Virus record (IMG/VR): IMGVR_UViG_3300038309_000012
Location: 1 to 50,307 of that record
Length of the DNA: 50,307 nt
Strand: one strand, 5' to 3'
Source of the DNA: a virus
Lineage: Duplodnaviria; Caudoviricetes
Of the stretch, positions 1,268 to 38,413 are shown piece by piece. Numbering within the stretch: position 1 is the stretch's first letter; each line of letters begins with the position of its first letter. The notes beneath the pieces are model-generated. The model saw only the letters and a program-made list of their open reading frames with translations. It searched no databases and had not been told where the DNA came from. A program made the position numbers and the translations under genes.

Positions 1268-1292
1268 AGCCCGTTTAATTTTTGAACAGCCT
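1268..1292. repeat. 25-bp palindrome copy 1
   Basis: AGCCCGTTTAA TTT TTGAACAGCCT; supplies the TAG stop of 1291..2349. Confidence 0.85.
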
Positions 1293-2349
1293 ATAATAAA
1301 TTCATAGCGTTTACAATTTTAGGTTTGTATACTTTATCTATTCGCTTATTTACTTTTGTAGCAATAGGGAAAAGACTAGCATCTTGCTTATATATGCGTA
1401 AATTAGTTGTACTTTGTTTACCTTTGAATTGAGTTACTATTGAATCATAACTAACTTTAGTATTTTTGTTTATCCATCTACGACATTCAGCGCATAGGTC
1501 AAAAACTCTATTTTTTACACGTTTTAGGTATTTCTCATCAGCACGATTTAACAGCTGTGAAAAGCGAACGTCTAGTAATTCTTCTCCACCTATTACATAG
1601 GCAGCTACCAGCATGCCTAAAAAACGAGGATTATTAGGTGAAGCTTTATCTATATAAGAAGCAGTAAAGAAGCCTCCATCATTGAAGGGGCCTAAATGGA
1701 CTACACCAGCTGTTGTTAGAGACCAATTAGAATAACCGAATAATAAAGGTTTAAAACTAATTAGAAAATCTCCTCCTCCCCAACACAGACGATGAGTCGA
1801 TAACGGGTAATAACCCCTAATATGCTCCCATACTGAACGTTTGATAACCATAGGCATACTTCGAAGTGGGGATTTGAAGTAAGGGAGGGTAGTCTTGTAA
1901 CCATGTAAGCGTAAGCCAGTGAACTTTTCAACGTCTCTATCGCAAAAGGAGTCTAGTTCATGAGCAGATGAATAGCACATAAGGCCAAAAAGTATGCCTA
2001 GGTTATCAATGCGATCTGCGAATGTTACTAATTTGTTAATAGCATTTTTCATTACTAGACAGTGTGAGTCTAGAATAAGAATATATTCACCTGTTGAATG
2101 CTGCACAGCTAAATCACGCGCGCTAAATAAGCAAGCAAAGTTTTGTTCTATTATTTTAACTTCGTTTTTAGTAGTGAAAGCATCAAATAAGTCGTATAGA
2201 GTTTGCCGTTTAGCTGAATCTTCAGAATTATTAACTATAATTATCTCAGCAGTAAAAGAACAACTCTTTAATGATTCCATAACTGAACGTATAGTTATTA
2301 GGCATCCAAAAGGATCATTTCTTTCTGAGATAATTATAGATAATTTCAT
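1291..2349 (-). CDS. GT-A fold (GT2-like) glycosyltransferase
   Basis: LSIIISERN, EIIIVNN, ARDLAVQHSTGEYILILDSH (DxH) and WGGGD motifs. Confidence 0.85.
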   Translation of the reverse strand: MKLSIIISERNDPFGCLITIRSVMESLKSCSFTAEIIIVNNSEDSAKRQTLYDLFDAFTTKNEVKIIEQNFACLFSARDLAVQHSTGEYILILDSHCLVMKNAINKLVTFADRIDNLGILFGLMCYSSAHELDSFCDRDVEKFTGLRLHGYKTTLPYFKSPLRSMPMVIKRSVWEHIRGYYPLSTHRLCWGGGDFLISFKPLLFGYSNWSLTTAGVVHLGPFNDGGFFTASYIDKASPNNPRFLGMLVAAYVIGGEELLDVRFSQLLNRADEKYLKRVKNRVFDLCAECRRWINKNTKVSYDSIVTQFKGKQSTTNLRIYKQDASLFPIATKVNKRIDKVYKPKIVNAMNLL

Positions 2350-3341
2350 CAGTTATTCCAAGGCTGAGTGGTTAATAGTTCGTCAAAAGTGATAGTTTTG
2401 TGCGCATCTAGCCAATCTTTTTCTTTCTGGCCCATTTGTATAGCTGCATCCCACCACTTGTCTATATCTATGAATTGACCGAAGCGACGTTTTATAGAAG
2501 CTTTGTTCCTTTTCATCATAGATTTACCACCTATAACATAACAACTTATCAGGAAACCTAATGAGTGTGGGCCTTCTCCTGAAACTGACCATAGGCGATA
2601 ACGATCTCTAGCAGTTACTTTAGCTACTTTTACAGCATTAGGGTTAGTTGTGGTGTCTACTTTTGGGAAAGGTCCGATGTGAATGCCTGGAGAAGTAGGC
2701 ACTGCGTAGTTCTTATAGCCGAGCATCCAAGGTTTGATGCCGATATGCATGTCTCCACCGCCCCAACTAAGACGGTGCTCTGCAAGCGCACCATAGCCGT
2801 TAATAGTTTTCCATAGCTCTCTACGACAGATCCAAGGCATACCTTTCCATGTGATTGTTCTAACTGTGTCATATGATTTGTTCCAGTTTCCTAGTTCACA
2901 TTCGCTCATGTCTCGATCATGACGAGAGGAAGTTTCATGTTGATGTGCCCAGTTGATAGGTGCATGAGCGAAACCTATAGTTGGATCACCCTGTCTTGAT
3001 TCCATAAAGTTGTAGAGATCAAGGAACATATCGTTGCCTATTAGCATGTGGGAATCAACACAAGCGATGTATTTTCCAGTTGAATGTTCAATAGCTGTTT
3101 CACGTGCTGTGAAGAGGCAAGGATAGTCTTGACGATAAACTTTCAGTAGCCCATCTGAGATGTAGCCAGAAGGAAGTACACTTTTAATTTTGTCATACCA
3201 TTCAGGGTCGGAATTGTCTACTATGATGATCTCGCAGTTTTCAAGGCCCAGAGGCTTGAGTTCTTCAACACATGATCTAAAAGTGACTGCGAGCATAGAG
3301 ACGTCGTTTCGGTTAGATATGACTACTGAAAGTTTTTTCAT
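2349..3341 (-). CDS. GT-A fold (GT2-like) glycosyltransferase, paralogue of 1291..2349
   Basis: LSVVISNRN, EIIIVDNS, ARETAIEHSTGKYIACVDSH, WGGGD, GIHIGPF. Confidence 0.87.
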   Translation of the reverse strand: MKKLSVVISNRNDVSMLAVTFRSCVEELKPLGLENCEIIIVDNSDPEWYDKIKSVLPSGYISDGLLKVYRQDYPCLFTARETAIEHSTGKYIACVDSHMLIGNDMFLDLYNFMESRQGDPTIGFAHAPINWAHQHETSSRHDRDMSECELGNWNKSYDTVRTITWKGMPWICRRELWKTINGYGALAEHRLSWGGGDMHIGIKPWMLGYKNYAVPTSPGIHIGPFPKVDTTTNPNAVKVAKVTARDRYRLWSVSGEGPHSLGFLISCYVIGGKSMMKRNKASIKRRFGQFIDIDKWWDAAIQMGQKEKDWLDAHKTITFDELLTTQPWNN

Positions 3342-3530
3342 CTATTTCTCGTCAAGAGGTTTGTCAGTTACAAAACGGAGTACTATGTTAAGTACAGTGT
3401 AGAACGCTGTTACAGTTTCTACAGACATTTCATAACCAAATGATTTGGAAATTGCTACTATAGCGGCCATTAGTGCATTAATATTCACTGTTTTGCTCTT
3501 ACCAGTGAGTGCAGCTATAAGTTTATTCAT
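3342..3530 (-). CDS. Small membrane protein, holin-like
   Basis: 62 aa, two hydrophobic stretches, KSKT...N start and NIVLRFVTDKP end typical of small phage holin-like proteins. Confidence 0.5.
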   Translation of the reverse strand: MNKLIAALTGKSKTVNINALMAAIVAISKSFGYEMSVETVTAFYTVLNIVLRFVTDKPLDEK

Positions 3531-4071
3531 TGACTACCTCCTTATCTTCTATAGTGACTAAAAGCCCAGATTCACGTGCAGCTTTTAGTCCACGCTCTTT
3601 GAAAGCATTTATCTGATCCATATTAGCTGTGACGTTCATGCTTTGAGATTGGACTTTAGTTGGTGCTCTGTGTCCTGCGATATCCATTACTATAGTATCA
3701 GCAGTTTCTTTTTTCATCTTGTAATCGACAGAAGGATTTTCAAAAATTTCTGAGTAAACTTCAAGTGCGCGTTCAGTCAGTTCATTGACTCGCTGGTGGA
3801 ATTGGATAGCTTCTCCATCCCGTTCTTCACGAAGTCTAGAAAGTTTTTCCTTACCTAGATCAGAGTTAATAGTGTTAGAGACAGTCTGGGGGCTTATGTT
3901 AAGAAGTTCGGCGATCTGTGTATTTTTGTACCCTTGGAGTTTAAGCAGGATGATCTCATGAGAGTGTTGCCATAGTTGTTGTATATTAATTTGACGCGTA
4001 CCCTCTTCGACGCGGCGCTTGTCTGGTATTCTTACTTCGAAACCGTATAGTGATTTTTCTGTCCCTTCCAT
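3523..4071 (-). CDS. HTH protein, probable terminase small subunit
   Basis: HTH LQGYKNTQIAELLNISPQTVS followed by a helical region; first gene of the late operon. Confidence 0.55.
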   Translation of the reverse strand: MEGTEKSLYGFEVRIPDKRRVEEGTRQINIQQLWQHSHEIILLKLQGYKNTQIAELLNISPQTVSNTINSDLGKEKLSRLREERDGEAIQFHQRVNELTERALEVYSEIFENPSVDYKMKKETADTIVMDIAGHRAPTKVQSQSMNVTANMDQINAFKERGLKAARESGLLVTIEDKEVVNE

Positions 4072-6160: not shown

Positions 6161-6871
6161 ATGAATAATAGTAGAGAAGAAAAACAAGAGAGGACCATAG
6201 CTGTTAATGCAAGAATAGATATGGTCTCGTTAGCGGAGATGTTAGTTTATTTTAACTCTCAAGGGATTGGGATTAGTTCTATGAGTAGCTTGGTTAGTCA
6301 CTGTGTGGAACTTAGCCGGGGAATTTTGGATAGCAATGGGAAGTTAGAAAGTAAATTTAGTGCTGGTGAGGCATTTAGAGTGTTGACTGACTTAGGGATG
6401 ATTAATAGAAGTACTAAGAGTAGGAATTTGAAAAAGATAATGAATGCTATTAGGATGGAGAACTTGAGAGTTGAGGGTGAAAATCCTAGGAATTATGCAC
6501 CTTTGCAATATAATATGGTTCATAATAGCCATTCGGTAGAACCACCTAAGATTAATGTCACAAGTGATATAGTGCAAAAGGCAGTAGAAGAGTATAACAG
6601 ACAAGAGGACTTAGAGAAACAAAAGATGATTGAAGAGGCTAGAAATAGAGATAAGATTTTGTTAGAGCATTTAAGATCTCAAGGGCAATTAGTTGATTTA
6701 CCTGATAAGCCTGAAGAAAGAAGTAAGAAAGTAGTTAAAGATTGGAGACCTAGGAAGTTGACAGATGAGGAGTTGAGGGCTAAGGAGGAAGAAATTAGAA
6801 GGCGTGATGAGGAATTGAAGGAACAGATGGGAGTTATTCCTAGGGATGGAGTAGTTAAATTGGAAGAATAA
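6161..6871 (+). CDS. Hypothetical protein, possible N-terminal ribbon-helix-helix, charged C-terminus
   Basis: AAGGAG RBS; TIAVNARID...SMSSLVSHCVE pattern. Confidence 0.7.
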   Translation: MNNSREEKQERTIAVNARIDMVSLAEMLVYFNSQGIGISSMSSLVSHCVELSRGILDSNGKLESKFSAGEAFRVLTDLGMINRSTKSRNLKKIMNAIRMENLRVEGENPRNYAPLQYNMVHNSHSVEPPKINVTSDIVQKAVEEYNRQEDLEKQKMIEEARNRDKILLEHLRSQGQLVDLPDKPEERSKKVVKDWRPRKLTDEELRAKEEEIRRRDEELKEQMGVIPRDGVVKLEE

Positions 6872-6882
6872 AGGAGAAAACT

Positions 6883-7032
6883 ATGTTTACATTATGGTTT
6901 GAGGGGTTAGTTTGGGTTATAGACGAGATTAATCCTGGTATATACAATAACACATACACTAGTGAAATACTATCAAAAGCTTTAGATAATGACTCGTGTA
7001 TGATAAAGCTCAGTAGATGGTTAATGTGGTAG
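6883..7032 (+). CDS. Small hypothetical protein (49 aa)
   Basis: AAGGAG RBS, open frame by hand; stop is the palindrome's TAG. Confidence 0.6.
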   Translation: MFTLWFEGLVWVIDEINPGIYNNTYTSEILSKALDNDSCMIKLSRWLMW

Positions 7033-7055
7033 ATTGTTTAAATTTTAAACAGCCT
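7031..7055. repeat. 25-bp palindrome copy 4
   Basis: AGATTGTTTAA ATT TTAAACAGCCT. Confidence 0.85.
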
Positions 7056-7087
7056 AAGTATAAATAAGAAGAATAAAAGGAGGAAGT

Positions 7088-7381
7088 ATGAAAAAAGTAG
7101 TGATTAACAGATGCTATGGTGGATTTGGACTGTCACATGAAGCTATCATGCGGATAGCAGAAATTAAAGGCATAAAATTATACACTGAGGATAATTTCGA
7201 TGTACATGGTATTTCCAGAGAAGATAAAACATTAGTAATGGTAGTAGAAGAATTAGGTGAAAAAGCTAATGGCGATTGTGCTGAATTAAAAATAATAGAA
7301 ATACCAAATGACGTTGAATATACAATAGAAGAATATGATGGTTCTGAATGGATAGCAGAGGTGCACAGAACATGGAGTTGA
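7088..7381 (+). CDS. Conserved phage hypothetical protein
   Basis: KVVINRCYGGFGLS...IEEYDGSEWIAE motif common in phage early regions; AAGGAGG RBS. Confidence 0.8.
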   Translation: MKKVVINRCYGGFGLSHEAIMRIAEIKGIKLYTEDNFDVHGISREDKTLVMVVEELGEKANGDCAELKIIEIPNDVEYTIEEYDGSEWIAEVHRTWS

Positions 7382-7383
7382 TT

Positions 7384-7408
7384 AGACCGTTTAAATTTTA
7401 AACAGTCT
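7384..7408. repeat. 25-bp palindrome copy 5
   Basis: AGACCGTTTAA ATT TTAAACAGTCT. Confidence 0.9.
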
Positions 7409-7514
7409 AAGTATAAATCAACAAATTTAATTCCAACTACTTGACCTACCATAAATGGTATGGTATGGTTGAGGAAAATGTAGGTAAGGTTAACTTTAAC
7501 TAAGGAGAAAACAA

Positions 7515-9483: not shown

Positions 9484-9506
9484 AACAACTATGAAAGGAG
9501 AACTAA

Positions 9507-9821
9507 ATGATCCAAGGAAAAGACCTTGCATGGCATTATGATGCCTGTATCGAGATGTGGAATGAGATAGCAGAAGGGATGGATGCTAATGAGTCAGACT
9601 ATGATATTAGTGTCAAGAAAAAAACTACATTATGTAAAATGTATTATACTCATAGTAATTGCTTTGCTTGTGAAGCATTTAATTGCGATGACTGTCCATT
9701 TGCAGTATATGGTAATTGTGGTGAAATTGGCTCTCCTTACAAGAATTTCGAAGACCATAAAGGAACTCAACAAGACGCAATCGCCATAGCACAATTGTTT
9801 ATAGACTATTATCCTGAATAG
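9507..9821 (+). CDS. Cys-rich hypothetical protein
   Basis: CFAC...CDDCP; AAGGAG RBS; ends on the palindrome's TAG. Confidence 0.7.
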   Translation: MIQGKDLAWHYDACIEMWNEIAEGMDANESDYDISVKKKTTLCKMYYTHSNCFACEAFNCDDCPFAVYGNCGEIGSPYKNFEDHKGTQQDAIAIAQLFIDYYPE

Positions 9822-9844
9822 ACTGTTTAATTTTTAAACAGTCT
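9820..9844. repeat. 25-bp palindrome copy 6 (perfect)
   Basis: AGACTGTTTAA TTT TTAAACAGTCT. Confidence 0.95.
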
Positions 9845-9860
9845 GAAAGTAAAGTAAGAT

Positions 9861-10100
9861 ATGAAACTCTTTCTATGCAAAACTCACAATTGTCACATAA
9901 CTACCAAAACCTGCCTAGCTCGACTCCGTAATACTACGTTTGGCTTTACTCATAAAAGGCGCCCTGATATGATTGATTCTGTACATCGGTGCTGGTATTG
10001 TGACCTAGGCAAAAAACTAGCAAAGGAGAACAATATTGAAAACCCTATTGAAAAGTCAAATAGTAGAAAAAAGAAAGAAAAGGTGGAAAGTGGTGAGTAA
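9861..10100 (+). CDS. Hypothetical Cys-containing protein
   Basis: ORF in co-oriented cluster. Confidence 0.6.
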   Translation: MKLFLCKTHNCHITTKTCLARLRNTTFGFTHKRRPDMIDSVHRCWYCDLGKKLAKENNIENPIEKSNSRKKKEKVESGE

Positions 10101-15063: not shown

Positions 15064-15991
15064 CAGTTCTAAGTTAGACACCTACTTAGACTGCCCTAGG
15101 CAATACTTCTACGAATACATCCTAGGTTGGCGTCGTGACATTCCAGCTCATGACTTGCACTTTGGCACTTCTTGGCATGAAGCTAGAGAGCACCAACTAC
15201 TTCACGGTTATGAAGATGTAGAAGGCGCGTATGCTAAATTTATCAACTGCTACCGTGAAGTATTTCCACAGGAAACTGATGCAATCTACACGCCAAAAGA
15301 TCCTACTGCTGTAGCGATGGCATTGCTGAAGTTTGCCCAGGAGAGAAAATCAGACCTAAGGAATAACAAGGTGCTATATACTGAAATCTCAGGTACTGTA
15401 CCTATCTCCGAAAGCGGCAAAGTCCTGCATTACCGAATGGATTCAGTTATAGAAAGAAAAGAAGACGGAATGATTTTCTCTTGGGATCATAAATCAGGTA
15501 GTGAAAAGTCCCTAAATTTTCGTGGCTGGGATGATAAGTTTCAACTAGGAATCCAAGCTGGAACTTACACTCATTGCTTGTATTGTCTATACCCTATAAA
15601 GCAAGTACTTGGTATAGAGTTCTGCGGCACTGGATTTGGTTACTTAAAACGCACCCAGGAATACCGCATAACTTTTAAGCGCGTCCCTGTGTGGAAAACT
15701 CCTGATCAAATGAACAACTGGCTATGGACTGTAAATGAACTCTACGATAACATCATGAGAGATATGGATAGATTGAATGATTGTAGTGAGAATGATTCTA
15801 TCCTCATGACATTTCACATGAATCCTGGGGCTTGTACTAAATACTGGGGCTGTCCTTATCATGACTTTTGTTTAACTTGGAACAACCCATTACGAAATTG
15901 CTACGAACCTCCACTAGGCTTTAAAGAAGAGTTCTGGGACCCGAGTGCTATGGAAACTACTAACAAAATGAACTTGGAGTTTAACAAATGA
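15029..15991 (+). CDS. PD-(D/E)XK exonuclease (RecB/Cas4-like, Fe-S cysteines)
   Basis: CPRQYFYEY, LHFGTSWH, RMD...DHKS, C-terminal C....CPYHDFC. Confidence 0.85.
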   Translation: MIKEHPTHLIIDSSKLDTYLDCPRQYFYEYILGWRRDIPAHDLHFGTSWHEAREHQLLHGYEDVEGAYAKFINCYREVFPQETDAIYTPKDPTAVAMALLKFAQERKSDLRNNKVLYTEISGTVPISESGKVLHYRMDSVIERKEDGMIFSWDHKSGSEKSLNFRGWDDKFQLGIQAGTYTHCLYCLYPIKQVLGIEFCGTGFGYLKRTQEYRITFKRVPVWKTPDQMNNWLWTVNELYDNIMRDMDRLNDCSENDSILMTFHMNPGACTKYWGCPYHDFCLTWNNPLRNCYEPPLGFKEEFWDPSAMETTNKMNLEFNK

Positions 15992-16173
15992 TTTCAGTAG
16001 TAATTAAAATAAACGGTAAAGCAATTACTGGAAGAAGTGCAGTCAGGAAAGTAACTAATCCTGACGGAAATCATGAATATCATGTAGACGATGGCAGAAT
16101 AATCTCTCATCAATATGATGATGGAGCTATTAAATTAGCAATTAAAATGCTAGAAGGGATAAAGAATACATAA
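15988..16173 (+). CDS. Hypothetical protein
   Basis: Coupled overlaps at both ends. Confidence 0.65.
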   Translation: MISVVIKINGKAITGRSAVRKVTNPDGNHEYHVDDGRIISHQYDDGAIKLAIKMLEGIKNT

Positions 16174-17862: not shown

Positions 17863-19053
17863 ATGCCCAACCATCGTGTTTTAATCCTAGGAATTGACGG
17901 CTACATTGGTTATCCTCTAGCACTACACCTTATCAAGCAAAATTTCGAAGTGTGTGGAGTAGATAACCTAAGTCGTCGTGATAGAGTACGCCACATAGGT
18001 GGAGCGTCTTTAACCAACATTGCTTCCTTTGATGATCGCGCTAATTATTTATCCTCGTTTAATAATTTCATAGATAACATGTCTCGTATTGATGTAGATT
18101 ACTACGATACAATATCTGCTGCAATAAAATATTTCAAACCTGATACAATAGTTCACCTAGCGCAAATGCCTAGTGCTCCATGGTCTATGATCAATGCCTA
18201 TCATGCGTATCAGACACAGCATGAAAATTGTATGGCTAATCTTAATGTACTCTGGGCTATGAAACAGCATTGCCCTAATGCACATTTGTTGAAGTTAGGA
18301 ACTATGGGAGAGTATGGCACACCTAATTGTGACATACCTGAAGGAGAGATTCCTAAGGAATGTTTAACTGGTGGTGTAGGCCCTTATGTAGGAGGTTACG
18401 ATGCTGGATGCCCTATGTCAGGCCTAATCTTCCCACGCCAACCTGGATCATTCTACCACCTATCCAAAGTCTTCGATACTTACAATGTAGACTTCGCTTG
18501 CCGTAACTGGGGCTTACGCTCTACTGATGTAATGCAAGGAGTAGTATATGGTCTTAATAAACCCAACAATAACATTGAAATTACTAGATTCGACTACGAC
18601 GAATACTTTGGCACTGCTATCAATCGTTTCTGCACTCAAGCTATTATCGAATATCCCATTACAGTCTACGGAAACGGAAACCAGACAAGAGGATATCTAC
18701 CACTTAAAGATTCTATCCAGTGCTTAACCTTAGCAATAGAAAATCCTCCTGAAGATGGAGAATGTAGGACATTCAATCAGTTTGAGGAAATCTATTCCAT
18801 TAACGAACTCGCTGACATCGTAAATCGTCAGGCACAAAAGCTAGGACTTAATCCAGGAATCACGCACATTTCTAATCCACGAAAGGAAAAGGAATCACAC
18901 TATTACAATCCAGAACATAGTAAACTTTTAGACTTAGGTTACAAACCTACAGATGATCTTGAAGGTGAGGTAGGAATCCTACTCCAACAACTCATGCCTT
19001 ACAAAGATAGGGTTAATAAAAAAGTTATTATGCCTAAGACTAAGTGGGAGTAG
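17863..19053 (+). CDS. sqdB: UDP-sulfoquinovose synthase (SqdB/SQD1/Agl3 family)
   Basis: GIDGYIG, VDNLSRR, SAPWSM, KLGTMGEYGTP, PGSFYHLSK, WGLRSTDVMQGVVYG, RFDYDEYFGTAINRFC, QTRGY, FNQF, NPRKE...HYY. Confidence 0.92.
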   Translation: MPNHRVLILGIDGYIGYPLALHLIKQNFEVCGVDNLSRRDRVRHIGGASLTNIASFDDRANYLSSFNNFIDNMSRIDVDYYDTISAAIKYFKPDTIVHLAQMPSAPWSMINAYHAYQTQHENCMANLNVLWAMKQHCPNAHLLKLGTMGEYGTPNCDIPEGEIPKECLTGGVGPYVGGYDAGCPMSGLIFPRQPGSFYHLSKVFDTYNVDFACRNWGLRSTDVMQGVVYGLNKPNNNIEITRFDYDEYFGTAINRFCTQAIIEYPITVYGNGNQTRGYLPLKDSIQCLTLAIENPPEDGECRTFNQFEEIYSINELADIVNRQAQKLGLNPGITHISNPRKEKESHYYNPEHSKLLDLGYKPTDDLEGEVGILLQQLMPYKDRVNKKVIMPKTKWE

Positions 19054-20015: not shown

Positions 20016-20199
20016 CATCTCAACTATGTCTTACTCAGACGCAGTTGAATACCTAAAGTCTCTACGCTATAGTAGGCGCATCCCTAAACGTCAACAGTCT
20101 AAAGCTACACAAGAAAAGAAGGCTAAAGCTAAAGCACTACCAAAGATTTCAAAAGTAGACGCACAACAATTACTTAAGTTATTAGGAGGATCAAACTGA
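19987..20199 (+). CDS. Small basic hypothetical protein
   Basis: Lys-rich ORF coupled to the next gene. Confidence 0.6.
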   Translation: MNLSSIQNPNISTMSYSDAVEYLKSLRYSRRIPKRQQSKATQEKKAKAKALPKISKVDAQQLLKLLGGSN

Positions 20200-21876: not shown

Positions 21877-22032
21877 ATGAAAGATACAAAAGTTATTAAG
21901 TTAATAAACGATAAGTTTAAAATTAAACTATTTAAACATTCTGCAGTAATAGCTCCTAATATATATGCATTATTTTTAGATGTACTACATGAGGTATTAG
22001 ATGATATAGAAAAGGAAAGGTTAAATAGATGA
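21877..22032 (+). CDS. Small hypothetical protein (51 aa)
   Basis: TAAGGA RBS, ATGA overlap with the polymerase gene. Confidence 0.5.
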   Translation: MKDTKVIKLINDKFKIKLFKHSAVIAPNIYALFLDVLHEVLDDIEKERLNR

Positions 22033-24542
22033 AACAAACCTATATCCACCCATCAGGTAATCCAAAAGCTAAACTTGCGATCTGTGGTGAACAGCCTGGG
22101 TTTCAAGAAGTTCATGCTGGCAAGCCATTCGTTGGCCCAGCAGGACAAGGCTTAGATGATTGCCTCAAGATGGCAGGAATACTACGAAGTGAACTATACA
22201 TCACCAACGTTATTAAAGATTTAGATGCACCATTAGCTCGTTATATTAACATAGCGCCTAATGGTAAGTCTACTATCTCCAAAGAAGGATATCAGTACAT
22301 CGAGGAGCTTGGCGAAGAACTACGCGCACTTGACCTTAATTGCATTGTAGCTCTTGGTAATATAGCCTTACTCGCGCTGACCAATCGTACTGGAATTACC
22401 AAGTGGCGTGGGTCTATCCTTGAATCTACTATAGTCCCAGGACTTAAAGTAATTCCTACATTCCATCCAGCCACATTCATTCCACCTAAGTTTAACTACC
22501 TAAACAAACCATTGATAACTATGGATTTGGAAAGGGCTAAAAAAGAAAGTGCTAATGCGTCTATCAATACAAGAACACGCTATGTGGTTACTTCACCTAC
22601 TTATGATGAATCCATCAGAGAACTTAATAGTTGTATCTTCGACGGAAGAGCAGGCAAAACTATTGATGTCGACATTGAAGTCATTAATGAAGAACTCGAC
22701 TGTTTTTCAGTGTGTAGAAATGAGAACCTCAGCATGTCAATCCCACTCAGATATGACAAAGGTGACTATTTCACGGTTGAGCAAGAGTTAGAAATTTTAA
22801 AACTCCTTAGCAAAATAATGTCTGACGACCAAATATCTAAACGAGGCGCTAACTTTATCTTCGATACTCAGTTCTTATTTCACAAATACGGGATGGAACC
22901 TAAGGGAGAACTCCACTGCACGCAGATAGCTCAGAAAATAGCCTTTCCAGATTTCAACGCTGGCCTAGACTTCGTAACCTCTATGCACACTGACATACCG
23001 TACTATAAAGCAGACGGTAAAAAGTGGATGAAGACTGGTACTGGTACTTGGAAAGAGTGGTGGACTTACAATGGGATGGATACTATATCAACAGCAGCTG
23101 CACACCCAAACCAGATAAAAGAATTAGAAAAACAATTAAACATCGAAACCTACGATCGCCAACGTAAGTTGATAAAGCCTCTAATCTACATGTCAGAACG
23201 TGGTATTAAGATTGATGTAGATGGAATGCTTAAACTAAAGAACAAAGAACAAGCTGAACTCGACAAGCTAATTGAAAACCTGCATGAAGAAGTAGGTTAT
23301 GAGATTAATCCTAATTCTCCAGCCCAGCTTAAAGAATATTTCTATGGGAAAAGCAAAGGGCAACTTGGTATAAAAGCTTACAAAGCTAAAGGCGCAAACG
23401 GTTATACTATCTCTACCAATGTCGATGCACTAAAGCGTATCTCTCGTCAAGGGTACAAAGCAGCGCAGATTATGTTAGACATTAGGTCACGTAGTAAACG
23501 AATATCAACTTACTTAAACATTAAAAAGGTGGATAAAGATGGAAGATATAGAAGTTCATATAAGCCAGTTGGGGCTGAAACAGGGCGTTTGGCATCAGGA
23601 GAAACTATCTTTGGTACCGGAGGGAATCAACAAAATTGGCCTCATGACCTCCTTAGATTTTTTCTCTTTGATGATGGATACATTGGATATTCTTTTGACC
23701 TATCTCAAATCGAAAACCGTATTGTGGCCTACGTCGGTGGAGTCATATCACAAATTGAAGCTTTCGAACGAGGAATAGACCTCCACTCTATGACTGCTTC
23801 AGTCATCTTTAACAAACCTTATGATCAAATAAGTGATGAAGAAGGTTCTTGTTCTTTAGGTGACGGTCGTAAGTCAGAACGTGACTATGGTAAAAAAGGT
23901 AATCATGCAACTAACTATGACACCGGATACAAAACTTTCGCACTAAAGAACGAAATGCCTGAAGCAGAAGCTAAGATGGTGTTAGAGAGGATTCACCGTG
24001 GGTATCCGCAAATTAGAGGAGGTTATCACATACTGATTCAAAACATGCTAAAAGAATCACGTATTGTTACTAACTTGTTTGGGCGACGTAGACTTTTCCT
24101 CGGTCCTATATTCCCATCCTCTATGACTCCAACCTCAGCTTGTATGGATACCTATCGTGCTGCTTATGCACACTTTGCTCAATCTTCCTGTGCCGATAAG
24201 ATTAATGAACAAGGAGTTGAATTCATATACTACGACCAAGACAAGTTTGGGCCAATAGAATTACTAACACAGATTCATGACTCAGTAGTATTTCAAATTC
24301 CTTTATCAATACCTTGGAGAGAGCATGCTAGGATGTTATTCCAGATAAAACGTTCACTTGAGACCCCACTCTATTGGAAAGGAATAGAGATTAAAACTCC
24401 TTGTGATTTGGCCGTAGGACTTAACATGTATAAGAAGCAAATGGTAGAACTCAAAAGTAAGAAGTTTCCTACTGATGAAGAAAATCTTGCAATTAGGTTA
24501 GAAGAAATTTATAAACAATTGATTAGTGAGGAGGAAGAGTAG
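22029..24542 (+). CDS. Family A DNA polymerase with N-terminal family-4 uracil-DNA glycosylase-like domain and 3'-5' exonuclease
   Basis: GEQPG..E...GKPFVGPAG, YITNVIK, TFHPA (UDG); DVDIE (ExoI); ETGRLAS, DLSQIENR (A), RDYGKKGNHATNY (B), QIHDS (C). Confidence 0.93.
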   Translation: MKQTYIHPSGNPKAKLAICGEQPGFQEVHAGKPFVGPAGQGLDDCLKMAGILRSELYITNVIKDLDAPLARYINIAPNGKSTISKEGYQYIEELGEELRALDLNCIVALGNIALLALTNRTGITKWRGSILESTIVPGLKVIPTFHPATFIPPKFNYLNKPLITMDLERAKKESANASINTRTRYVVTSPTYDESIRELNSCIFDGRAGKTIDVDIEVINEELDCFSVCRNENLSMSIPLRYDKGDYFTVEQELEILKLLSKIMSDDQISKRGANFIFDTQFLFHKYGMEPKGELHCTQIAQKIAFPDFNAGLDFVTSMHTDIPYYKADGKKWMKTGTGTWKEWWTYNGMDTISTAAAHPNQIKELEKQLNIETYDRQRKLIKPLIYMSERGIKIDVDGMLKLKNKEQAELDKLIENLHEEVGYEINPNSPAQLKEYFYGKSKGQLGIKAYKAKGANGYTISTNVDALKRISRQGYKAAQIMLDIRSRSKRISTYLNIKKVDKDGRYRSSYKPVGAETGRLASGETIFGTGGNQQNWPHDLLRFFLFDDGYIGYSFDLSQIENRIVAYVGGVISQIEAFERGIDLHSMTASVIFNKPYDQISDEEGSCSLGDGRKSERDYGKKGNHATNYDTGYKTFALKNEMPEAEAKMVLERIHRGYPQIRGGYHILIQNMLKESRIVTNLFGRRRLFLGPIFPSSMTPTSACMDTYRAAYAHFAQSSCADKINEQGVEFIYYDQDKFGPIELLTQIHDSVVFQIPLSIPWREHARMLFQIKRSLETPLYWKGIEIKTPCDLAVGLNMYKKQMVELKSKKFPTDEENLAIRLEEIYKQLISEEEE

Positions 24543-29500: not shown

Positions 29501-30748
29501 TGTAGCTACACCTGGGTCGTCTATTTCTTTACCTTCAAATAGTTTAGCATACCTAGCTGTTTTCTCAGCGTCTTGAAAGTAAGGACTTTCTTTATTTATC
29601 TGCCTTTCACTTTCTACTTTAATAGCTATGTCTTCACTAATCTGATTATTAAGCTCTTCTGTTTTCTGCTCAAGATTTATTTTCTTCTCATTTATAATCT
29701 CTTGATTTTTAACTTTAGTAGGTTCATCAACTACAGAGTTATTCATCTCTTGCATTTTGTCTATTTGTATTCTTTCATTTATGGTTTCGTCTAACTGATT
29801 TATTCTTCTTTCTGATACTTTCCTAGGCAAACCTCTCCATAGAAAGAAAACATCTAATGCTGTATCAAACATTACTTCTTCTGCTGGACGATCAGTAAAT
29901 GGATTACCTCCTACTTCCAAAGCTCTTTGAGCATTCAAGCCTATAAGGCCAGTTATAATTCTAGCTGCTTGTTGCGCTCCTTCTTTTGGAAACATACCTC
30001 TAGCTATGCCAAAAACTGCACCAGTAATAGCTCCACTTTTAGTAGCATCATATATCTTACCTGCTGCTTGTGTGAAAGTAGGTTGCTCTAAGGCTTCTCC
30101 TGTAGCAGTTAAGCCAATAGCAGGGCCTAAAACAGCAGCTTCGCTAAGAGCTGATTTTAACACTCTACTTATAACTGATCCTTCAGCTGAGGCAGCAGGT
30201 AAGAATTTAACTATTGGTTTAGTAATACTTTCTACTATTTTAGCCGGTCCAACTAATAATCCAGCTAATGAACCTAAACCATTACCTATATACCCACTAG
30301 CATCAGTAGGTTTAAAATCTTCTTCACCAGTTAGAGTAGATCTAATGGCTGGTAGTACTCCCAAAGTAACTACGTTAGTAAATCCACTAGCTGCTTGTTC
30401 TATAAACTCAGGAGAATTTCTAAATTCAGCTGTAGTTTTTCCATTTTCATTAGCCAATAATTCCACTACAGCTTGAGCTCTAGCGCGATCACTTAATTGG
30501 GGTTGAATGTCTGTGCCAAACCAACTATTTATTTTACCTATAGCTTGTTCTATTAGATTATTTTTCTTTTCATAAGGTTCTAGTACAGATATCCTGTCTG
30601 GCTCATTAGTTTGTTTTCCCCCAACAAACATTTGATCAGTGAGTGACTGAGGACTAGCCTCAGTCTTTCCACTAAACAATTGATCAGATAAAGATTTACT
30701 ATCCTGTTGTTCTTTGTTAAATAGTTGATCAGTCAAGTTTAATGTCAC
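26582..30748 (-). CDS. Large internal virion/ejection protein (LPD38-like C-terminal region)
   Basis: 1388 aa, last late gene; F..ANIPRD, MDFGQGG, VPYLNASIQG, YFKIP motifs typical of podovirus large polyvalent proteins. Confidence 0.7.
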   Translation of the reverse strand: MTLNLTDQLFNKEQQDSKSLSDQLFSGKTEASPQSLTDQMFVGGKQTNEPDRISVLEPYEKKNNLIEQAIGKINSWFGTDIQPQLSDRARAQAVVELLANENGKTTAEFRNSPEFIEQAASGFTNVVTLGVLPAIRSTLTGEEDFKPTDASGYIGNGLGSLAGLLVGPAKIVESITKPIVKFLPAASAEGSVISRVLKSALSEAAVLGPAIGLTATGEALEQPTFTQAAGKIYDATKSGAITGAVFGIARGMFPKEGAQQAARIITGLIGLNAQRALEVGGNPFTDRPAEEVMFDTALDVFFLWRGLPRKVSERRINQLDETINERIQIDKMQEMNNSVVDEPTKVKNQEIINEKKINLEQKTEELNNQISEDIAIKVESERQINKESPYFQDAEKTARYAKLFEGKEIDDPGVATQKLINDVNRWYHGEDVDITATQNTLSDLAGKASEIRNMFRSNSEFELWKSNVSEAAKWARGVDRLKIEQSEQQIAETSMDVNPIDAKNVSDYTKYASSVKSFKPMQALGMIKDAATKAFVDVANVRKSLLSHGEEGYRALQKFVLSKGASAEAANMLTQMRKEVYDGLNSKEKNILDTLILSDRMNEIARYKDPGKFNFPKGLEPKSTAAYSELFGKIEKLSPEKEAIIRSKAKAYYEWMKKPLKDMLDSGVISEQEFNDLSSYNYRKLKLVEIYDKQYQARLGNKKKTVFDSGVEALAKGRETDIFEPSSEIMALEVFNRSYGRVLNNKANQALLEIARINPTNDMVRIKNKDSIIPSGWNRIFVFEGGQRKAMYLSPEFSKGWLNGSPELSYRMSTLLRYASGSPVLRTMATGINWGFALANIPRDVMHAWFATSMYNNGKAVSPYNSNLPIYGLQIGKDIVDVAGDAWNRGPRYEQYIKEGGGMEFLVHQGRIFQRGRHIDSAIDKFMDYIGFFGETSELVTRLAIRERVIKQRAKEQGISVEEARKNKDITQEATFVARDYMDFGQGGSISKAIDNAVPYLNASIQGTRGLFRSLKEKPLEGTYKLAQFGALVTGVYLASKQLSPETTKELKGSMVNNNYLIIPLGDQFGFYDEQNQKRYPYFKIPIDPGQKFFKALFEASADKWLGDEDFDVDRVIKGFKEQSPIGVTEILPPTMSAAIGYITNKDFWMNEDIWRQTDKPFSWPQSKEEYIPGETPKAFIDIGEKTGLSPERLKYSVNELVTNGTVWSWLLNQGYEKTFGDLPKDKKEQHLAMTLSKLPLIKRFFGVTNPYSKHAEKIDEAGEADTLKRFINSREVDRLTDGYLYEGTNQRKDVFDFIRRVKDLDERKRLIDRFKYELAIKNLPEKSFWKRLKGLSPEVRAQLFVDRLDNANEKERQQLWKEYATVSKAGGVISEDFRKEVMRLRAK
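29291..29315. repeat. 25-bp palindrome copy 13 (intragenic)
   Basis: AGACTGTTCAA TTT TTAAACGGTCT, encoding RLKIEQS. Confidence 0.9.
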
Positions 30749-31811
30749 GTCTCACCTCGCTAGTTGATCCATCAGGCCATTTAAGTTCCCAGATGAAAGT
30801 ATTACCATCTAAACGTTTGTTAATTAGTTTAGCATCTGAAGATTGAATTTTATCATCTATGTATTTCTCAGTCATGATAGCACGTTGACGTGTAGCTTCT
30901 GGACCTTCATACTGTATTAAAGTATTCTGTACATCTTCAGTATTAAGATACTTATCTACATCGCTAATTAATCCTTTAGGACTTTTAAAATAATCCTTAC
31001 GGTTCTCAAGTCCTGTTATTTGCTTCCTAGCTTTAAACTCACCTAAAGAAAGACCTCCACCAAGCGCAGTCATATCTCGTAACCAGGATTGAAAATCCCC
31101 TTTATATCCATTATTAACTGCATATTCATAATCTTTAATGTGTGAAGTTTTAGCATCTCGTTGAAACTCTGCGAAAGAACCCTCAAAGCCTTGAGATTTA
31201 GCGTATTCAAAATTCTTCATTGCTACGGTTCTTTCATCTTTACTTAAAGCTTTGTAAGCACTAGTAGCTGCATTCATTCTTGCAATCTCACCAGTTGCTT
31301 CTCTTGCTTTAATTGTCTGTGCTAAACTAACCGCCTGTGTTATGTCACTAGGAGTCAGCCCTGCTAGGTCGGCGGGAGAAATGTTACCTAGAGGACTAGA
31401 AGAAGGGTTTAGCAAACTGCCTAGAAATTTATTCTGGCTAGCCTCAGGAGTAGAAGTAGGTTGCATAGCTACTCCTTTACTAGCTGCTCCAGCATCCATC
31501 ATGCTGCTTTCTCCACCTAATGCAGCAGAAGGCATTTTTAAATTTAAGCTATCTCTATCAGCTGTAAGCTTAGCTCCTGCTGGCATACCTGAAAGCATGT
31601 TACTAAGCAACTTAGCTTGGTTTTGAGCAGCTATGTTTTGCATAGTTACATTGTTTAAGGCTACACCTACAGGCTGACCTGAACTAAGTGCTGCTCCAGC
31701 ACCTGACAAGTATTGTAGAAATAATGGATTACTAAGCAATCCACTTATTCCTCCACCTTGAGGAGTATTACCTCCAAGCATTCCACTAAGAGTTGAATTA
31801 GTATCTGTCAT
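30729..31811 (-). CDS. Putative ejection/internal virion protein
   Basis: Gly/Ala-rich N-terminus, repeated EYA...G..G.F; ATG 31811 follows GGAGG. Confidence 0.6.
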   Translation of the reverse strand: MTDTNSTLSGMLGGNTPQGGGISGLLSNPLFLQYLSGAGAALSSGQPVGVALNNVTMQNIAAQNQAKLLSNMLSGMPAGAKLTADRDSLNLKMPSAALGGESSMMDAGAASKGVAMQPTSTPEASQNKFLGSLLNPSSSPLGNISPADLAGLTPSDITQAVSLAQTIKAREATGEIARMNAATSAYKALSKDERTVAMKNFEYAKSQGFEGSFAEFQRDAKTSHIKDYEYAVNNGYKGDFQSWLRDMTALGGGLSLGEFKARKQITGLENRKDYFKSPKGLISDVDKYLNTEDVQNTLIQYEGPEATRQRAIMTEKYIDDKIQSSDAKLINKRLDGNTFIWELKWPDGSTSEVRRDIKLD

Positions 31812-31828
31812 ACGTTGTTCCTCCAAAT

Positions 31829-35051: not shown

Positions 35052-35055
35052 AGTT

Positions 35056-35792: not shown

Positions 35793-35817
35793 AGACTGTT
35801 TAAAAATTAAACGGTCT
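35793..35817. repeat. 25-bp palindrome copy 15
   Basis: AGACTGTTTAA AAA TTAAACGGTCT. Confidence 0.92.
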
Positions 35818-35843
35818 GGGACAGTCATCGCTGACCATCCCAG
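35815..35843 (-). terminator. Hairpin after major capsid gene
   Basis: - strand CTGGGATGGTCA-GCGA-TGACTGTCCCAG, running into a palindrome. Confidence 0.6.
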
Positions 35844-35862
35844 CCGTAATTGGCCTTAGAGG

Positions 35863-37167
35863 TTAGCTAAGTGTGTTGTTCAGGCCAACACCATTAAGCA
35901 GTGCACATTTCTGCGCAAGGCCGAACTCAAGACCAGCTTCAGTGAGAAATTCCTCGTTCAAACCATCTACACGTCTCTGACCATAACCAGAAGAATGTTC
36001 CTTCTTGCTGTTCTCCCCATAAAAAGTAGTATCATCAATATAACGATATGTAAGTTCTTTAGGTTCGAGAATCAGCATCATGTTACGAGTAGTAGGATCA
36101 TGGCTAAACAGAGGATGGGTTTTCATATAGATGGAACCAAAAGGAGTCATCCATCTAGTAATTTCCATACCATAGGTTTTCTGCCCAGGCATGAGTTGTA
36201 CCTGACCGCCAGTCATAGCAAGTGCATCAATACCTAGCAGTGCGCCAGAACCTATGAGAGCGAGTTTCTCGTTTGATCCATACCGGAAAATCTGTTCAAG
36301 CATTGCCTTAAACCAGGTTTCTCCACCGCTTGCCCAGGTAGTACCAGAGTAATCAGTATTGAGTGTATAGTCATCACAGTTAGCACTAGCATACTGACGA
36401 ATGAAGTTGATAGCACCCATAGTGGTACGCTCAGGTTTACCATTATCACCTACGTTCTCAGTCCTAATACCCCAGAGAAAAGCGAGTTCCATTTCCCAAG
36501 AATGATTTTCCAGAGCTTCAGCCTTTGCCTTCTGGTAGTCATTAGGAGTACGAAGTCTAGTCTTCATAGCAGTACGAGTCATGCTAAGAGGAGACCTGAA
36601 TATTTGAGTATAGTTGTATACTTTGGTAGGATTCTGTGCAATAGCATCAGGCATCTCACCGCCTTCAGGGTTAATATTACCAATGATCTTGAAGTTATCG
36701 CAGTCACTGAGGTCATGAGTAGTTGAATTATCATCAGCTTCGAGAAGCTTAACAGCTAGTGTAGTATAGGTAGTACCTCTAGTTACATCAGTAACTTTGG
36801 CATTCACATCTACACGGTAATCACTAGCATCACGCAGAAGAATCTGATGACCATTACGAATTCGCTGAGCTACTGAAGTAAGGACCTTAATAAACAGTGT
36901 ATCGCCAGCTACTCCACCAGTTACATAAGCAGTAGAGAGATCAGCATTAGTATAAATACCGTACACATCGCCGCTAACAGCAGTCTGTTCCTGTGTCCAC
37001 CAATTAAACTCAGGGTCATCAGTTGCCTGACCACCCATCATAGAGAGGAGAGCAGTAAGTGGTGCCATACCATTAGGATACAGTTTAAGAATCTGCTGCC
37101 GCCAATTTTTAGGCCGTTGGTCAGTTACCCAATCTCCAGTTCCACGCATTCCAAGAAATCCAGACAT
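35863..37167 (-). CDS. Major capsid protein (HK97 fold, DUF5309/SU10-like)
   Basis: APLTALL, FNWW, NYTQIFR, EMELAFLWG, RTTMG, TPFG.I...HP, EFLTEAGLE; AAGGAGG RBS. Confidence 0.85.
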   Translation of the reverse strand: MSGFLGMRGTGDWVTDQRPKNWRQQILKLYPNGMAPLTALLSMMGGQATDDPEFNWWTQEQTAVSGDVYGIYTNADLSTAYVTGGVAGDTLFIKVLTSVAQRIRNGHQILLRDASDYRVDVNAKVTDVTRGTTYTTLAVKLLEADDNSTTHDLSDCDNFKIIGNINPEGGEMPDAIAQNPTKVYNYTQIFRSPLSMTRTAMKTRLRTPNDYQKAKAEALENHSWEMELAFLWGIRTENVGDNGKPERTTMGAINFIRQYASANCDDYTLNTDYSGTTWASGGETWFKAMLEQIFRYGSNEKLALIGSGALLGIDALAMTGGQVQLMPGQKTYGMEITRWMTPFGSIYMKTHPLFSHDPTTRNMMLILEPKELTYRYIDDTTFYGENSKKEHSSGYGQRRVDGLNEEFLTEAGLEFGLAQKCALLNGVGLNNTLS

Positions 37168-37195
37168 ATTATTACCTCCTTAGGTTATAGTTAAA

Positions 37196-37588
37196 TTAAA
37201 CAGCTACTGTAGTAGGAGCTACAGTTGTAGGTGTAGGTGTAGTACCAGTAAATGTTGTTACTGACTGAGCTACAAACCAAGCTAGGCCATCAGAGAAGCA
37301 AAGCAACTTATCGCATTTACCATTGAGCACTACATCACCTGCCCAACACTCAGAGTCATCTTTGTCCTGGACAGTAATAGTGTTAACTGCATCTGCATTA
37401 CGGCAGACGATGGAATACCATCTTCCACGAGCTTCAGCTACTGGCGGAAGGGTAATTGTAATAGCCCCAGTGTCTCCATCTGCTGAAGGGCGTACTACGT
37501 AATCTCGAGTTGACATTTGATAGTTGGCAATCGGATCTACGAATTTGTCAACTACTTGATGATGTTGTTCGGATCTATTTTCAAGCAT
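37196..37588 (-). CDS. Putative capsid decoration protein with Thr/Pro-rich tail
   Basis: GAITITLPP...SDG.AW beta domain; C-terminus TTFTGTTPTPTTVAPTTVAV. Confidence 0.55.
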   Translation of the reverse strand: MLENRSEQHHQVVDKFVDPIANYQMSTRDYVVRPSADGDTGAITITLPPVAEARGRWYSIVCRNADAVNTITVQDKDDSECWAGDVVLNGKCDKLLCFSDGLAWFVAQSVTTFTGTTPTPTTVAPTTVAV

Positions 37589-37603
37589 TAGATTTACCTC
37601 CGT

Positions 37604-38413
37604 TTAGTTATTAAGAGCATTATCCATTTCAGAAATTTCATTCAGGAACGGATCAACATCTTGTTTTGTTTTAGTCCTAAGCGCACTCTTTTTAGAAGTC
37701 AGCTTTGGAGGACCTGATTGTTTAATAGCTTCTTTTTTAAGGTCTAATCGTTTTCTTACTTCCGGACCAATCTCTTTAAGGATCTCTTGATAAGAACGAT
37801 TAGGATCTTTACCCACAATCTCGTCAAATACTGTACTAACGACTTTCTTAAACGGCACAAGGTCTGGATTATTTTCATAGAAATCCTCGCTAGCCTTTTT
37901 AAGTGAAGTTACAATTTCTATATTGTTTTTTACTATAGAGGGAATGTCCATAAGAATTCCCTGTCTTTCTGTAATTGCCTCCTTTCTTGCTTCTTTTCTA
38001 GCTGCTATATATACTTTGTTTAAGATAGCATTCAAAGCATCTTTGTTCATTGTTAGTTCGTCTAAATCAACTTCGCCAAGAAAATCTTCTATCTTGATAG
38101 GAGCTTCTGTAGAAGGTGTTGTTGTAGAAGGAGCCTTATCTTTTTCCTTCAACATACTTTCAAGTTCAGTAATTTTATCACACAATTTCTGAAATTCAGT
38201 AGGTTCTTCAACAGGAAGTTCAGTAATAGGGACTTCAGTGCTTGGAAGTTCCGTTACTGGGGACTTAGTACTAGGCATATCAGTAGTTGGCGCATCTGTA
38301 ATAGGATCATCTGCTGGCACCTCAGTCATAGGTGCACTAGTAGCCGCAGTAATAAGTTCTTCCATTTCATTAAGTTGATTAATAACATCTTCTTTACTCA
38401 TAGCTAACCTCAT
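37604..38413 (-). CDS. Putative capsid scaffolding protein
   Basis: Acidic Pro/Thr repeat N-terminus, helical body, FYENNPDL; upstream of capsid gene. Confidence 0.65.
   Translation of the reverse strand: MRLAMSKEDVINQLNEMEELITAATSAPMTEVPADDPITDAPTTDMPSTKSPVTELPSTEVPITELPVEEPTEFQKLCDKITELESMLKEKDKAPSTTTPSTEAPIKIEDFLGEVDLDELTMNKDALNAILNKVYIAARKEARKEAITERQGILMDIPSIVKNNIEIVTSLKKASEDFYENNPDLVPFKKVVSTVFDEIVGKDPNRSYQEILKEIGPEVRKRLDLKKEAIKQSGPPKLTSKKSALRTKTKQDVDPFLNEISEMDNALNN

Follow-up and report, generated by a model that had tools for sequence, protein, structure and literature searches.

The phage considered here, a member of the Caudoviricetes, is known from the IMG/VR record IMGVR_UViG_3300038309_000012, whose 50,307 bases (the window, i.e., the whole stretch of DNA that was analysed) represent a whole virus, 100% complete and linear according to CheckV. 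It appears to encode a self-contained system of three parts, that is, a sugar-nucleotide synthase, a mucin-type glycosyltransferase (GT), and proteins carrying repeat acceptors. The explanation that we favour, with a probability of about 0.45, is a mucin-type O-glycosylation of the phage's own particle proteins, in which the sugar is most likely sulfoquinovose; the link between the transferase and its acceptors is good, and the one between sulfoquinovose and the transferase is moderate. In a more detailed form, which we put forward still more tentatively, a clade of uncultivated podophages with genomes of about 50 kb would build a "sulfomucin", an enzyme of the GT27 type O-linking sulfoquinovose to the threonines of xPTT repeats in a knob protein and in mucin-like fibre proteins. 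An earlier note on this DNA had placed an SqdB homologue at 17863-19053, two GTs at 1291-3341, and Thr/Pro-rich proteins at 37196-38413, and had joined them into one system; the three parts do sit at these sites.

According to this idea, the phage SqdB would convert UDP-glucose and sulfite of the host into UDP-sulfoquinovose during the infection, as its homology to known synthases suggests. A soluble GT27-like enzyme would then bind the UDP-sugar via its DxH/His metal site and, judging from its fold, its motifs, and its co-distribution with the acceptors, would transfer the sugar onto the Thr hydroxyls of unstructured xPTT repeats. The main acceptor in this phage would be the C-terminal tail of the knob protein, with the Thr/Pro/Glu linker of a scaffold-like protein maybe as a second one; in the relatives the same enzyme would act alongside long mucin-like xPTT or poly-Thr proteins encoded in the head and tail gene region. 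The second GT (1291-2349) would be optional, perhaps extending the glycan, and the outcome might be a hydrated coat on the virion, negatively charged by its sulfonates.

The synthase, the transferase, and the acceptor tail

The open reading frame (ORF) at 17863-19053 (plus strand), embedded in the block of replication genes, encodes a predicted UDP-sulfoquinovose synthase of the SqdB/SQD1 type, 396 residues long. It matches the NCBIfam family NF041015 (UDP-sulfoquinovose synthase) with an E-value of 1.4e-141 and 471.9 bits, and the next-best NCBIfam family reaches only 32 bits; thus, the protein is a divergent member of the UDP-sulfoquinovose synthases and not an enzyme of some other family. 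Its residues 4-396 align with Arabidopsis SQD1 (residues 12-393 of 1i24; also 1qrr), which is its sole match among solved structures (E 1.1e-107). Of the residues that are kept, T145, Y182, H183, and K186 (1qrr numbering), we take Thr145, Tyr182, and Lys186 to be the catalytic ones of SQD1, His183 lying next to the Tyr. The surrounding segments, LGTMGEYG and SFYHLSKV, are identical to those of SQD1 and invariant across 28 phage homologues. The replacement of SQD1 Arg101 by Pro is common to the cellular homologues and is, therefore, no peculiarity of the phage. A variable-length insert at residues ~156-183, flanked by the invariant C156, C167, and C183, is missing from the 10 cellular homologues of the same alignment, and its TPxC motif is found in 25 of the 28 phage sequences vs. 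0 of 80 cellular ones. The 28 phage proteins form one clade (support 100), separate from their 80 nearest cellular homologues, a topology that fits a single old acquisition. No close SqdB was found in the deposited phage genomes, where the best match has 23% identity. Around the 80 cellular sqdB loci, no homologue of either GT or of the knob protein lies within 5 kb, so that this comparison revealed no cellular forerunner of the system.

The ORF at 2349-3341 (minus strand; PF00535, E 2.1e-12) encodes a GT-A enzyme of 330 residues that resembles the polypeptide-GalNAc-transferases (ppGalNAc-T) of family GT27 and is thus more than a generic GT2 protein. Its AlphaFold2 (AF2) model is of high confidence (predicted local distance difference test, pLDDT, 88; predicted TM-score, pTM, 0.88), the sole disordered stretch being residues 225-253. 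In a Foldseek comparison with the PDB, every match listed (to rank 48) is a ppGalNAc-T, with E-values from 2.8e-13 to 1.8e-11. An independent search with VIA-align against 48,161 representative chains gave a Z-score of 25.1 for mouse GalNAc-T1 (284 residues, root-mean-square deviation 3.3) and of 24.6 for TgGalNAc-T3, all the other GT-A enzymes, TarP included, remaining at or below 18.4. Of the 450-600-residue ppGalNAc-T targets, these structural alignments take in the catalytic part alone. At the sequence level, the profile of the phage GT family (alignment A1, 32 members) matches nine ppGalNAc-T sequences with E-values from 4e-5 to 0.017; its LDSH is aligned with the LDSH of PGANT9 and GalNAc-T7, and its sWGGGdlhig...aihi (WGGGD...H221) with IWGGENLELS...VGHI of the same two enzymes, so the Gal/GalNAc-T motif reads WGGGD instead of WGGEN. 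D96, H98, W193, G194-196, and H221 are invariant in A1.

The phage enzyme ends three helices after the catalytic domain, and carries no ricin-type lectin domain; its model shows no membrane segment, i.e., the type II membrane topology of GT27 is lacking. Because both the lectin domain and the membrane anchor are missing, we describe it as an enzyme that probably works like GT27 and do not count it as a member of this family; fold, motifs, and co-distribution suggest that it transfers a sugar to Ser/Thr of polypeptides. Its homologues number 442 in a large protein collection, and a tblastn search of 50,697 phage records, actinobacteriophages included, yielded no match at E 1e-3 or better. A complex prediction of the GT with residues 90-130 of the knob protein scored 0.02, which weighs neither for nor against an interaction.

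The second GT-A enzyme (1291-2349, minus strand; 352 residues; PF00535, E 1.9e-11) is a paralogue of the first, the two tandem GT2 proteins sharing 31% identity. In five relatives it matches only the orthologue of the first GT (33-38% identity), and it has 12 homologues in the same protein collection vs. 442 for the first; an apparent orthologue, also in tandem, is present in relative G031. The second GT is thus a rare accessory paralogue, which perhaps adds a second sugar or extends the glycan. The earlier note had reasoned with a pair of GTs: both genes are there, and conservation throughout the clade is limited to the one at 2349-3341.

The probable main acceptor is encoded directly upstream of the major capsid gene, at 37196-37588 (minus strand). 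It is a 130-residue beta-knob protein, whose AF2 model (pLDDT 81) consists of a beta-sandwich core (residues 14-112) and an unstructured tail. In structure, the knob is most similar to domains at the distal end of phage tailspikes (Z 12.7 and 11.1) and then to the Pseudomonas phage Pa223 capsid spike (Z 9.6), with unrelated entries at 4.9 or less; its matches in BFVD, a library of viral models, are tail-fibre-like proteins. It is, hence, probable that the knob is an exposed protein of the virion, similar to a capsid spike or a decoration protein, which carries the acceptor tail. The knob gene is absent between the portal, scaffold-like, and capsid genes of Desulfofustis phage LS06-2018-MD01 (OP947158.1, 22688-29980) and is, therefore, an accessory gene.

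The C-terminal Thr/Pro tail, residues ~108-130 (37199-37267, minus strand), reads SVTTFTGTTPTPTTVAPTTVAV and is a predicted O-glycosylation acceptor in a region of low model confidence; the disordered part corresponds to TTPTPTTVAPTT, and the protein terminates in TFTGTTPTPTTVAPTTVAV. Among the ORFs of the window of at least 60 residues it holds the 15-mer richest in Thr, Pro, and Ser (11 of 15, nine other ORFs reaching 9), and under a stricter rule based on Thr plus Pro the knob is the sole ORF that passes out of 75 of at least 80 residues. The APTT of the tail resembles the classic EA2 mucin peptide. The next gene upstream (37604-38413, minus strand) codes for a 269-residue protein with Thr/Pro/Glu-rich repeats at residues ~24-105; its position and composition suggest a scaffold role, and its translated xPxTE-like linker (38099-38344, minus strand) is a possible second acceptor. 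The Thr/Pro tracts that the earlier note had described in the two genes just upstream of the major capsid gene were, thus, found in both of them.

Distribution of the three parts among relatives

With the capsid gene as anchor, 154 relatives were found in IMG/VR, from which 80 loci were kept, and the presence of the three parts was profiled in 27 contigs, i.e., 24 capsid-anchored ones longer than 40 kb and three already known to hold sqdB. Eight of the 24 carry sqdB, and seven of these eight also carry the GT (the exception is an 84%-complete fragment), which was found in none of the 16 capsid-anchored records without sqdB. At a completeness of 90% or more (20 of the 24), both genes are present in seven, neither in 13, and no discordant case was observed. 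The three sqdB-anchored records, two of them complete, all harbor the GT, so that overall its orthologue occurs in 10 of 11 sqdB-positive vs. 0 of 16 sqdB-negative records. A GT-anchored search yielded 74 loci and 17 further contigs of at least 26 kb; nine of the 15 searched hold sqdB, and among those at least 90% complete five of seven do and two (G031 and G038) do not. The 14 smaller fragments added one more sqdB-positive record, whose knob has the tail, and no GT. Taking together the complete genomes of the three anchored sets and the window, 15 possess both genes, 13 neither, two only the GT, and none only sqdB; in other words, sqdB without the GT occurs in 0 of 15. This asymmetry is expected if the GT uses the product of SqdB and can also do its work in phages that have no sqdB of their own.

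The GT27-like enzyme is the sole recognisable GT2 in two of five complete sqdB-positive relatives, and none of the five encodes a GT of the PF00534 type; hence, the minimal conserved set consists of SqdB, one GT, and the acceptors.

The knob protein behaves in the same way as the two enzymes. Its core is conserved in both sqdB-positive and sqdB-negative relatives, and its C-terminus differs between them (alignment A2). All 20 full-length sqdB-positive orthologues terminate in Thr/Pro/Ala repeats of the TTxAPTT type, whose copy number ranges from about one to six or more; 18 of the 20 pass a rule on the Thr/Pro fraction and 19 a rule on PT[TS] motifs, each of them passing at least one. None of the eight orthologues from genomes lacking both sqdB and the GT passes either rule, their ends being, e.g., FPEGYDYDY. 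Thus sqdB, the GT, and the knob tail are present together or absent together, though they are located 15-20 kb apart. The scaffold-like tract follows sqdB less strictly than the knob tail does: the Thr fraction of the linker is at least 0.08 in 10 of 12 sqdB-positive genomes vs. none of seven close sqdB-negative relatives, where the linkers are rich in Asp/Glu/Lys or in Pro. The link among the three parts drawn in the earlier note is, therefore, supported in its core by the phylogenetic profiling, the check which that note had proposed, with the amendments that one GT takes part in it instead of two, that the scaffold-like tract is a looser companion, and that two GT-positive genomes lack sqdB.

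A scan for Thr/Pro tracts over 15 complete genomes (nine with and six without the GT), carried out without any prior choice of proteins, led to a similar scenario. All nine GT-positive genomes contain at least one strong tract, in 17 ORFs in total; of the six GT-negative ones, four have none and two have one weak tract each. The PT[TS] motifs per proteome are 14, 25, 34, 69, 95, 50, 7, 5, and 17 in the former and 4, 5, 4, 8, 5, and 2 in the latter. The GT-positive relatives encode mucin-like proteins of 328 residues with 51 PT[TS] motifs, of 399 with 46, and of 502 with 32, as well as one of 670 residues with 34 motifs around a concanavalin-like domain. The long mucin-like or poly-Thr ORFs lie at 15174-16160 in G003, 46771-47970 and 49109-50617 in G004, 22253-24265 in G009, 6248-7513 in G002, 9502-10020 in G001, 41234-43717 in G038, and 20607-21356 in G031; no long mucin-like ORF was found in the window. 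Among the ORFs with strong tracts, the mucin-like ones (at least eight) share a short C-terminal module bounded by Cys (…C…ELxxxxxLC), which perhaps attaches them to the particle.

The two genomes without sqdB fit the link between transferase and acceptor. In G038 the knob proteins have no tail, and a gene ~200 bases from the P0005-type GT (which a 185-residue ORF adjoins) encodes a beta-helix protein of 827 residues that contains a very long stretch of poly-Thr. In G031 the tail is present along with a poly-Thr protein of 249 residues, and the genome also encodes another GT2 and a fusion of a GT2 with a methyltransferase, a set that suggests a different glycan; the poly-Thr gene adjoins the fusion gene, ~5 kb from the P0005-type GT. 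GT2-methyltransferase fusions of 466 and 512 residues occur in some relatives (L285:1584-2984 in G031; protein P0183) and suggest methylated sugars in some lineages.

On the capsid tree, the state of sqdB requires four changes with 28 rows and six with 35, and the four earliest-branching ingroup rows are all GT-positive. This points to an ancestral system that may have been lost several times, each time with all its parts.

Weighing the alternatives

Several observations weigh against the reading proposed here. The score of the phage SqdB (471.9 bits) is below the equivalog cut-off of NF041015 (575), and the clade-specific Cys-flanked insert, a possible metal or disulfide site, might affect the predicted activity. 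Nothing in the GT sequence marks sulfoquinovose as its donor. The presence of the knob in the virion is suggested by its fold and gene position, and the identity of the sugar, its linkage, and its target are features that we infer. The simple rules used for the tails misclassify borderline cases, two short tails being missed by the Thr/Pro-fraction rule and one tail by that on PT[TS], and the weak Thr-rich stretches of two GT-negative genomes occur in homologues of the window ORF 30729-31826, which are unrelated to the acceptor proteins. Finally, G031 and G038 are complete GT-positive genomes that lack sqdB, and the GT of G031 is an ordinary orthologue (58% identity) accompanied by the Thr/Pro tail. 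Evidently, then, the GT does not depend on a phage sqdB and can use a different donor or UDP-sulfoquinovose made by the host, and for this reason the link between GT and acceptor is firmer than that between sulfoquinovose and GT.

These two genomes, which keep the GT and Thr-rich acceptors, make a serious rival of the idea that the GT27-like enzyme O-glycosylates the Thr/Pro tracts with an ordinary sugar of the host (e.g., from UDP-GalNAc, UDP-GlcNAc, or UDP-Glc) and that SqdB serves elsewhere; in variants of this idea, a different enzyme might attach sulfoquinovose at a later point in the glycan, or a host pathway might consume the UDP-sulfoquinovose. The closest solved relatives of the enzyme do use UDP-GalNAc, and no sulfonate-specific donor residue was identified; the comparison of the GTs of G031 and G038 with their sqdB-positive orthologues revealed no obvious discriminating residue. 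On the other hand, an ordinary donor does not account for the lack of any complete genome with sqdB and no GT, nor for the several joint losses of the two genes, and where the GT is the sole recognisable one no other phage-encoded user of UDP-sulfoquinovose was seen. Overall, we consider an ordinary sugar unlikely, although it is the strongest competitor of a sulfoquinovose donor.

Distinctly improbable, in our opinion, is that SqdB is an auxiliary metabolic gene (AMG) product feeding the sulfoquinovosyl diacylglycerol (SQDG) or an envelope sulfoglycan of the host, that the GT modifies an envelope polymer as TarP does, and that the Thr/Pro tracts are plain flexible linkers. TarP is a prophage enzyme acting on teichoic acid, and it is the best sequence-level PDB match of the GT profile (E 2.5e-6), over the generic N-terminal residues 1-123 only. 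SqdB is classically a sulfolipid enzyme, its cellular homologues are widespread in non-phototrophs, and a putative viral UDP-sulfoquinovose synthase has previously been reported as an AMG in a text dealing with another virus (PMC7785012). However, the record contains no GT of the SQDG-synthase type (no PF00534 and no PF01501 match, the positive controls being detected), although the host may supply one; the GT model has no membrane segment; and the structural score of the GT27 enzymes (Z 25) exceeds that of TarP or TarS (Z 18). Moreover, a role in the host envelope leaves unexplained why the Thr/Pro tails and the mucin-like proteins come and go with the GT.

The co-occurrence might also reflect a shared ancestry within one sub-lineage with exchange of modules, the three parts being functionally unrelated. 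The capsid tree is poorly resolved, and only two of the changes are forced by well-supported branches, so that a sign test, left with two independent contrasts, is unable to reach significance; part of the co-occurrence is therefore due to shared ancestry, which counts against our interpretation as well. Nevertheless, the best tree requires four to six changes, with genomes lacking sqdB, GT, and tail nested among the positive ones, and the argument for a functional link rests on three or four separate loci that change together and on a fold that independently predicts Thr/Pro tracts as acceptors. Furthermore, the GT-positive genome without a knob tail has the poly-Thr gene close to its GT instead. 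An explanation by ancestry as a whole is, hence, one to which we assign a low probability.

Lastly, a transfer of the sugar onto phage DNA (hypermodified bases) in place of protein is very improbable, in line with the preference expressed in the earlier note: although DNA glycosylation is frequent in phages, and the neighbours of sqdB in the replication block include a DNA methylase and the polymerase gene, no thymidylate-synthase-family hydroxymethylase was detected in the record or among the 20 early ORFs scanned, and the GT, whose fold is that of a polypeptide transferase, is encoded between terminase-like genes, away from those for replication.

Genome context and comparison with known systems

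The G+C content of the record is 37%. The replication genes form a plus-strand block of about 5.7-26.5 kb, which includes an ATP-dependent ligase, a PD-(D/E)XK nuclease, an AAA_24 ATPase, a DUF3987 primase-helicase-like protein, a pyrimidine-dimer glycosylase, a HIRAN domain protein, and MazG. At 22029-24542 an 837-residue family A DNA polymerase combines an N-terminal domain of the uracil-DNA-glycosylase superfamily and a 3'-5' exonuclease domain in a single protein, and at 20199-21512 a 437-residue fusion joins a ParB N-terminal domain to an N6/N4 DNA methylase, an arrangement kept in G031 and G038. The structural genes lie on the minus strand; they comprise the SU10-type major capsid protein (35863-37167; PF17236, E 3.9e-33; phrog_1328), which served as the phylogenetic anchor, and the SU10-type portal protein (39172-41121; PF23899, E 1.2e-13). 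A 510-residue ORF at 46228-47760, with no Pfam match at E 0.01, is kept in the relatives where a large terminase is expected, and a 182-residue helix-turn-helix protein (3523-4071) shows a weak likeness to small terminases (phrog_2538); both GT genes are located between these two terminase-like genes. The early expression of sqdB and late expression of the GTs assumed in the earlier note had gene position as its only basis and did not find support, the promoter and terminator scans of the window showing no useful difference from shuffled sequence.

The record contains no exact terminal repeat. Its bases 1-~210 recur at 49535-49744 with three mismatches and then diverge, each copy falling within a large fibre-like ORF of the minus strand (3-1262, which is open at the end, and 47809-50307); the two could be paralogous fibre genes, or strain variation may have entered the assembly of a permuted genome. 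No tRNA gene was found in the record, hence no clue to the host came from this side, and no nucleotide-level match to the record was found in the deposited phage genomes. Among named phages, Desulfofustis phage LS06-2018-MD01 comes closest, with a capsid identity of 50.7%; neither sqdB nor the GT was found in it by the phage genome searches, and CRISPR spacers are reported to assign it to a sulfate-reducing host (PMC10370329). Judging from the G+C content and from this relative, the host is, as far as can be told, not an actinobacterium.

The possible meaning of these findings extends beyond a single phage, the clade being abundant in the environment, with hundreds of metagenomic homologues of each gene and hundreds of contigs of 45-53 kb that bear them. 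To our knowledge, glycosylated virions have so far been described only in a few actinobacteriophages, where the modification changes antibody recognition. If our reading is true, the enzymology of mucin-type O-glycosylation would reach beyond eukaryotes and have a counterpart in prokaryotic viruses, and this would be the first O-linked sulfoquinovosylation of proteins and the first sulfosugar-coated phage. O-sulfoquinovose would then be both a new protein modification and a new sink of sulfoquinovose in the sulfur cycle, and the three genes would represent a compact toolkit for placing a sulfonated sugar onto defined peptide tags. A testable idea would also emerge, namely that phages tune the charge, stickiness, or protease resistance of their particles in this way.

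The most similar known systems are those of the mycobacteriophages, in which the acceptors of virion glycosylation are reportedly Ser/Thr-rich extensions. In Che8, Corndog, and Myrna (Freeman et al. 2023, as cited in PMC12363180 and PMC12582341) the capsid and tail-tube proteins are glycosylated by the phages' own GTs (PMC12363180). There, as predicted here, phage-encoded GTs modify the phage's own structural proteins, and the genes are located in the late or structural region. The two differ in that the GT studied here has no sequence match in the 50,697 phage genomes, and hence none to Che8 gp110 or Corndog gp38 at that level, and is GT27-like, in that a synthase for a sulfonated sugar nucleotide is encoded by the phage itself, and in that the acceptor would be a small knob protein (mucin-like repeat proteins in the relatives), whereas in mycobacteriophages it is the capsid subunit itself.

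As regards the synthase, the phage SqdB is a full-length homologue of SQD1 (1qrr, 1i24), of bacterial SqdB, and of Sulfolobus Agl3, with the Thr and the Tyr-His-x-x-Lys kept; unlike the cellular enzymes, it belongs to a clade with a Cys-flanked insert and scores below the equivalog cut-off. Agl3 feeds sulfoquinovose into protein N-glycans, the only protein-linked use of this sugar that we know of. Unlike in the SQDG pathway, with SqdX/SQD2 (GT4) and SqdD (GT8), the partner of the phage synthase is neither a GT4 nor a GT8 enzyme, and it does not belong to an oligosaccharyltransferase pathway. A putative viral UDP-sulfoquinovose synthase has been described, in a context of glycosylation, for a Mu-like virus from the Cariaco Basin (Mara et al. 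2020, PMC7785012); the virus-encoded SqdB homologue is shared with our case, whereas the type of virus is different and, in the passages of that article consulted, no transferase, acceptor, or virion target is proposed. In the literature searched, supplementary files (including those of PMC7785012) lying outside the search, we found no description of a sulfoquinovose-modified phage particle or of a GT27-like phage enzyme.

The GT27 enzymes are regarded as eukaryotic, being otherwise known from animals and some protists. By two methods, those of human (GalNAc-T2), mouse (T1), Drosophila (PGANT9), and Toxoplasma (GalNAc-T3) are the best structural matches of the phage GT, which shares with them the DxH, the WGG(E/G)(N/D), and the third metal-binding His, followed by a disordered loop (225-253). 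The predicted acceptors are also alike, that is, Thr in unstructured Pro-rich repeats. The phage enzyme, in contrast, has 13-17% identity to them, is 330 residues long vs. about 500-600, lacks the ricin-type lectin domain and the membrane anchor, probably uses a donor other than UDP-GalNAc, and is encoded by a bacteriophage. The system would, therefore, be a case of the virion glycosylation already known in phages, built from unusual parts, i.e., a sulfosugar synthase, a GT27-like enzyme, and Thr/Pro tags, which possibly give rise to a sulfonated coat of a type undescribed for any phage.

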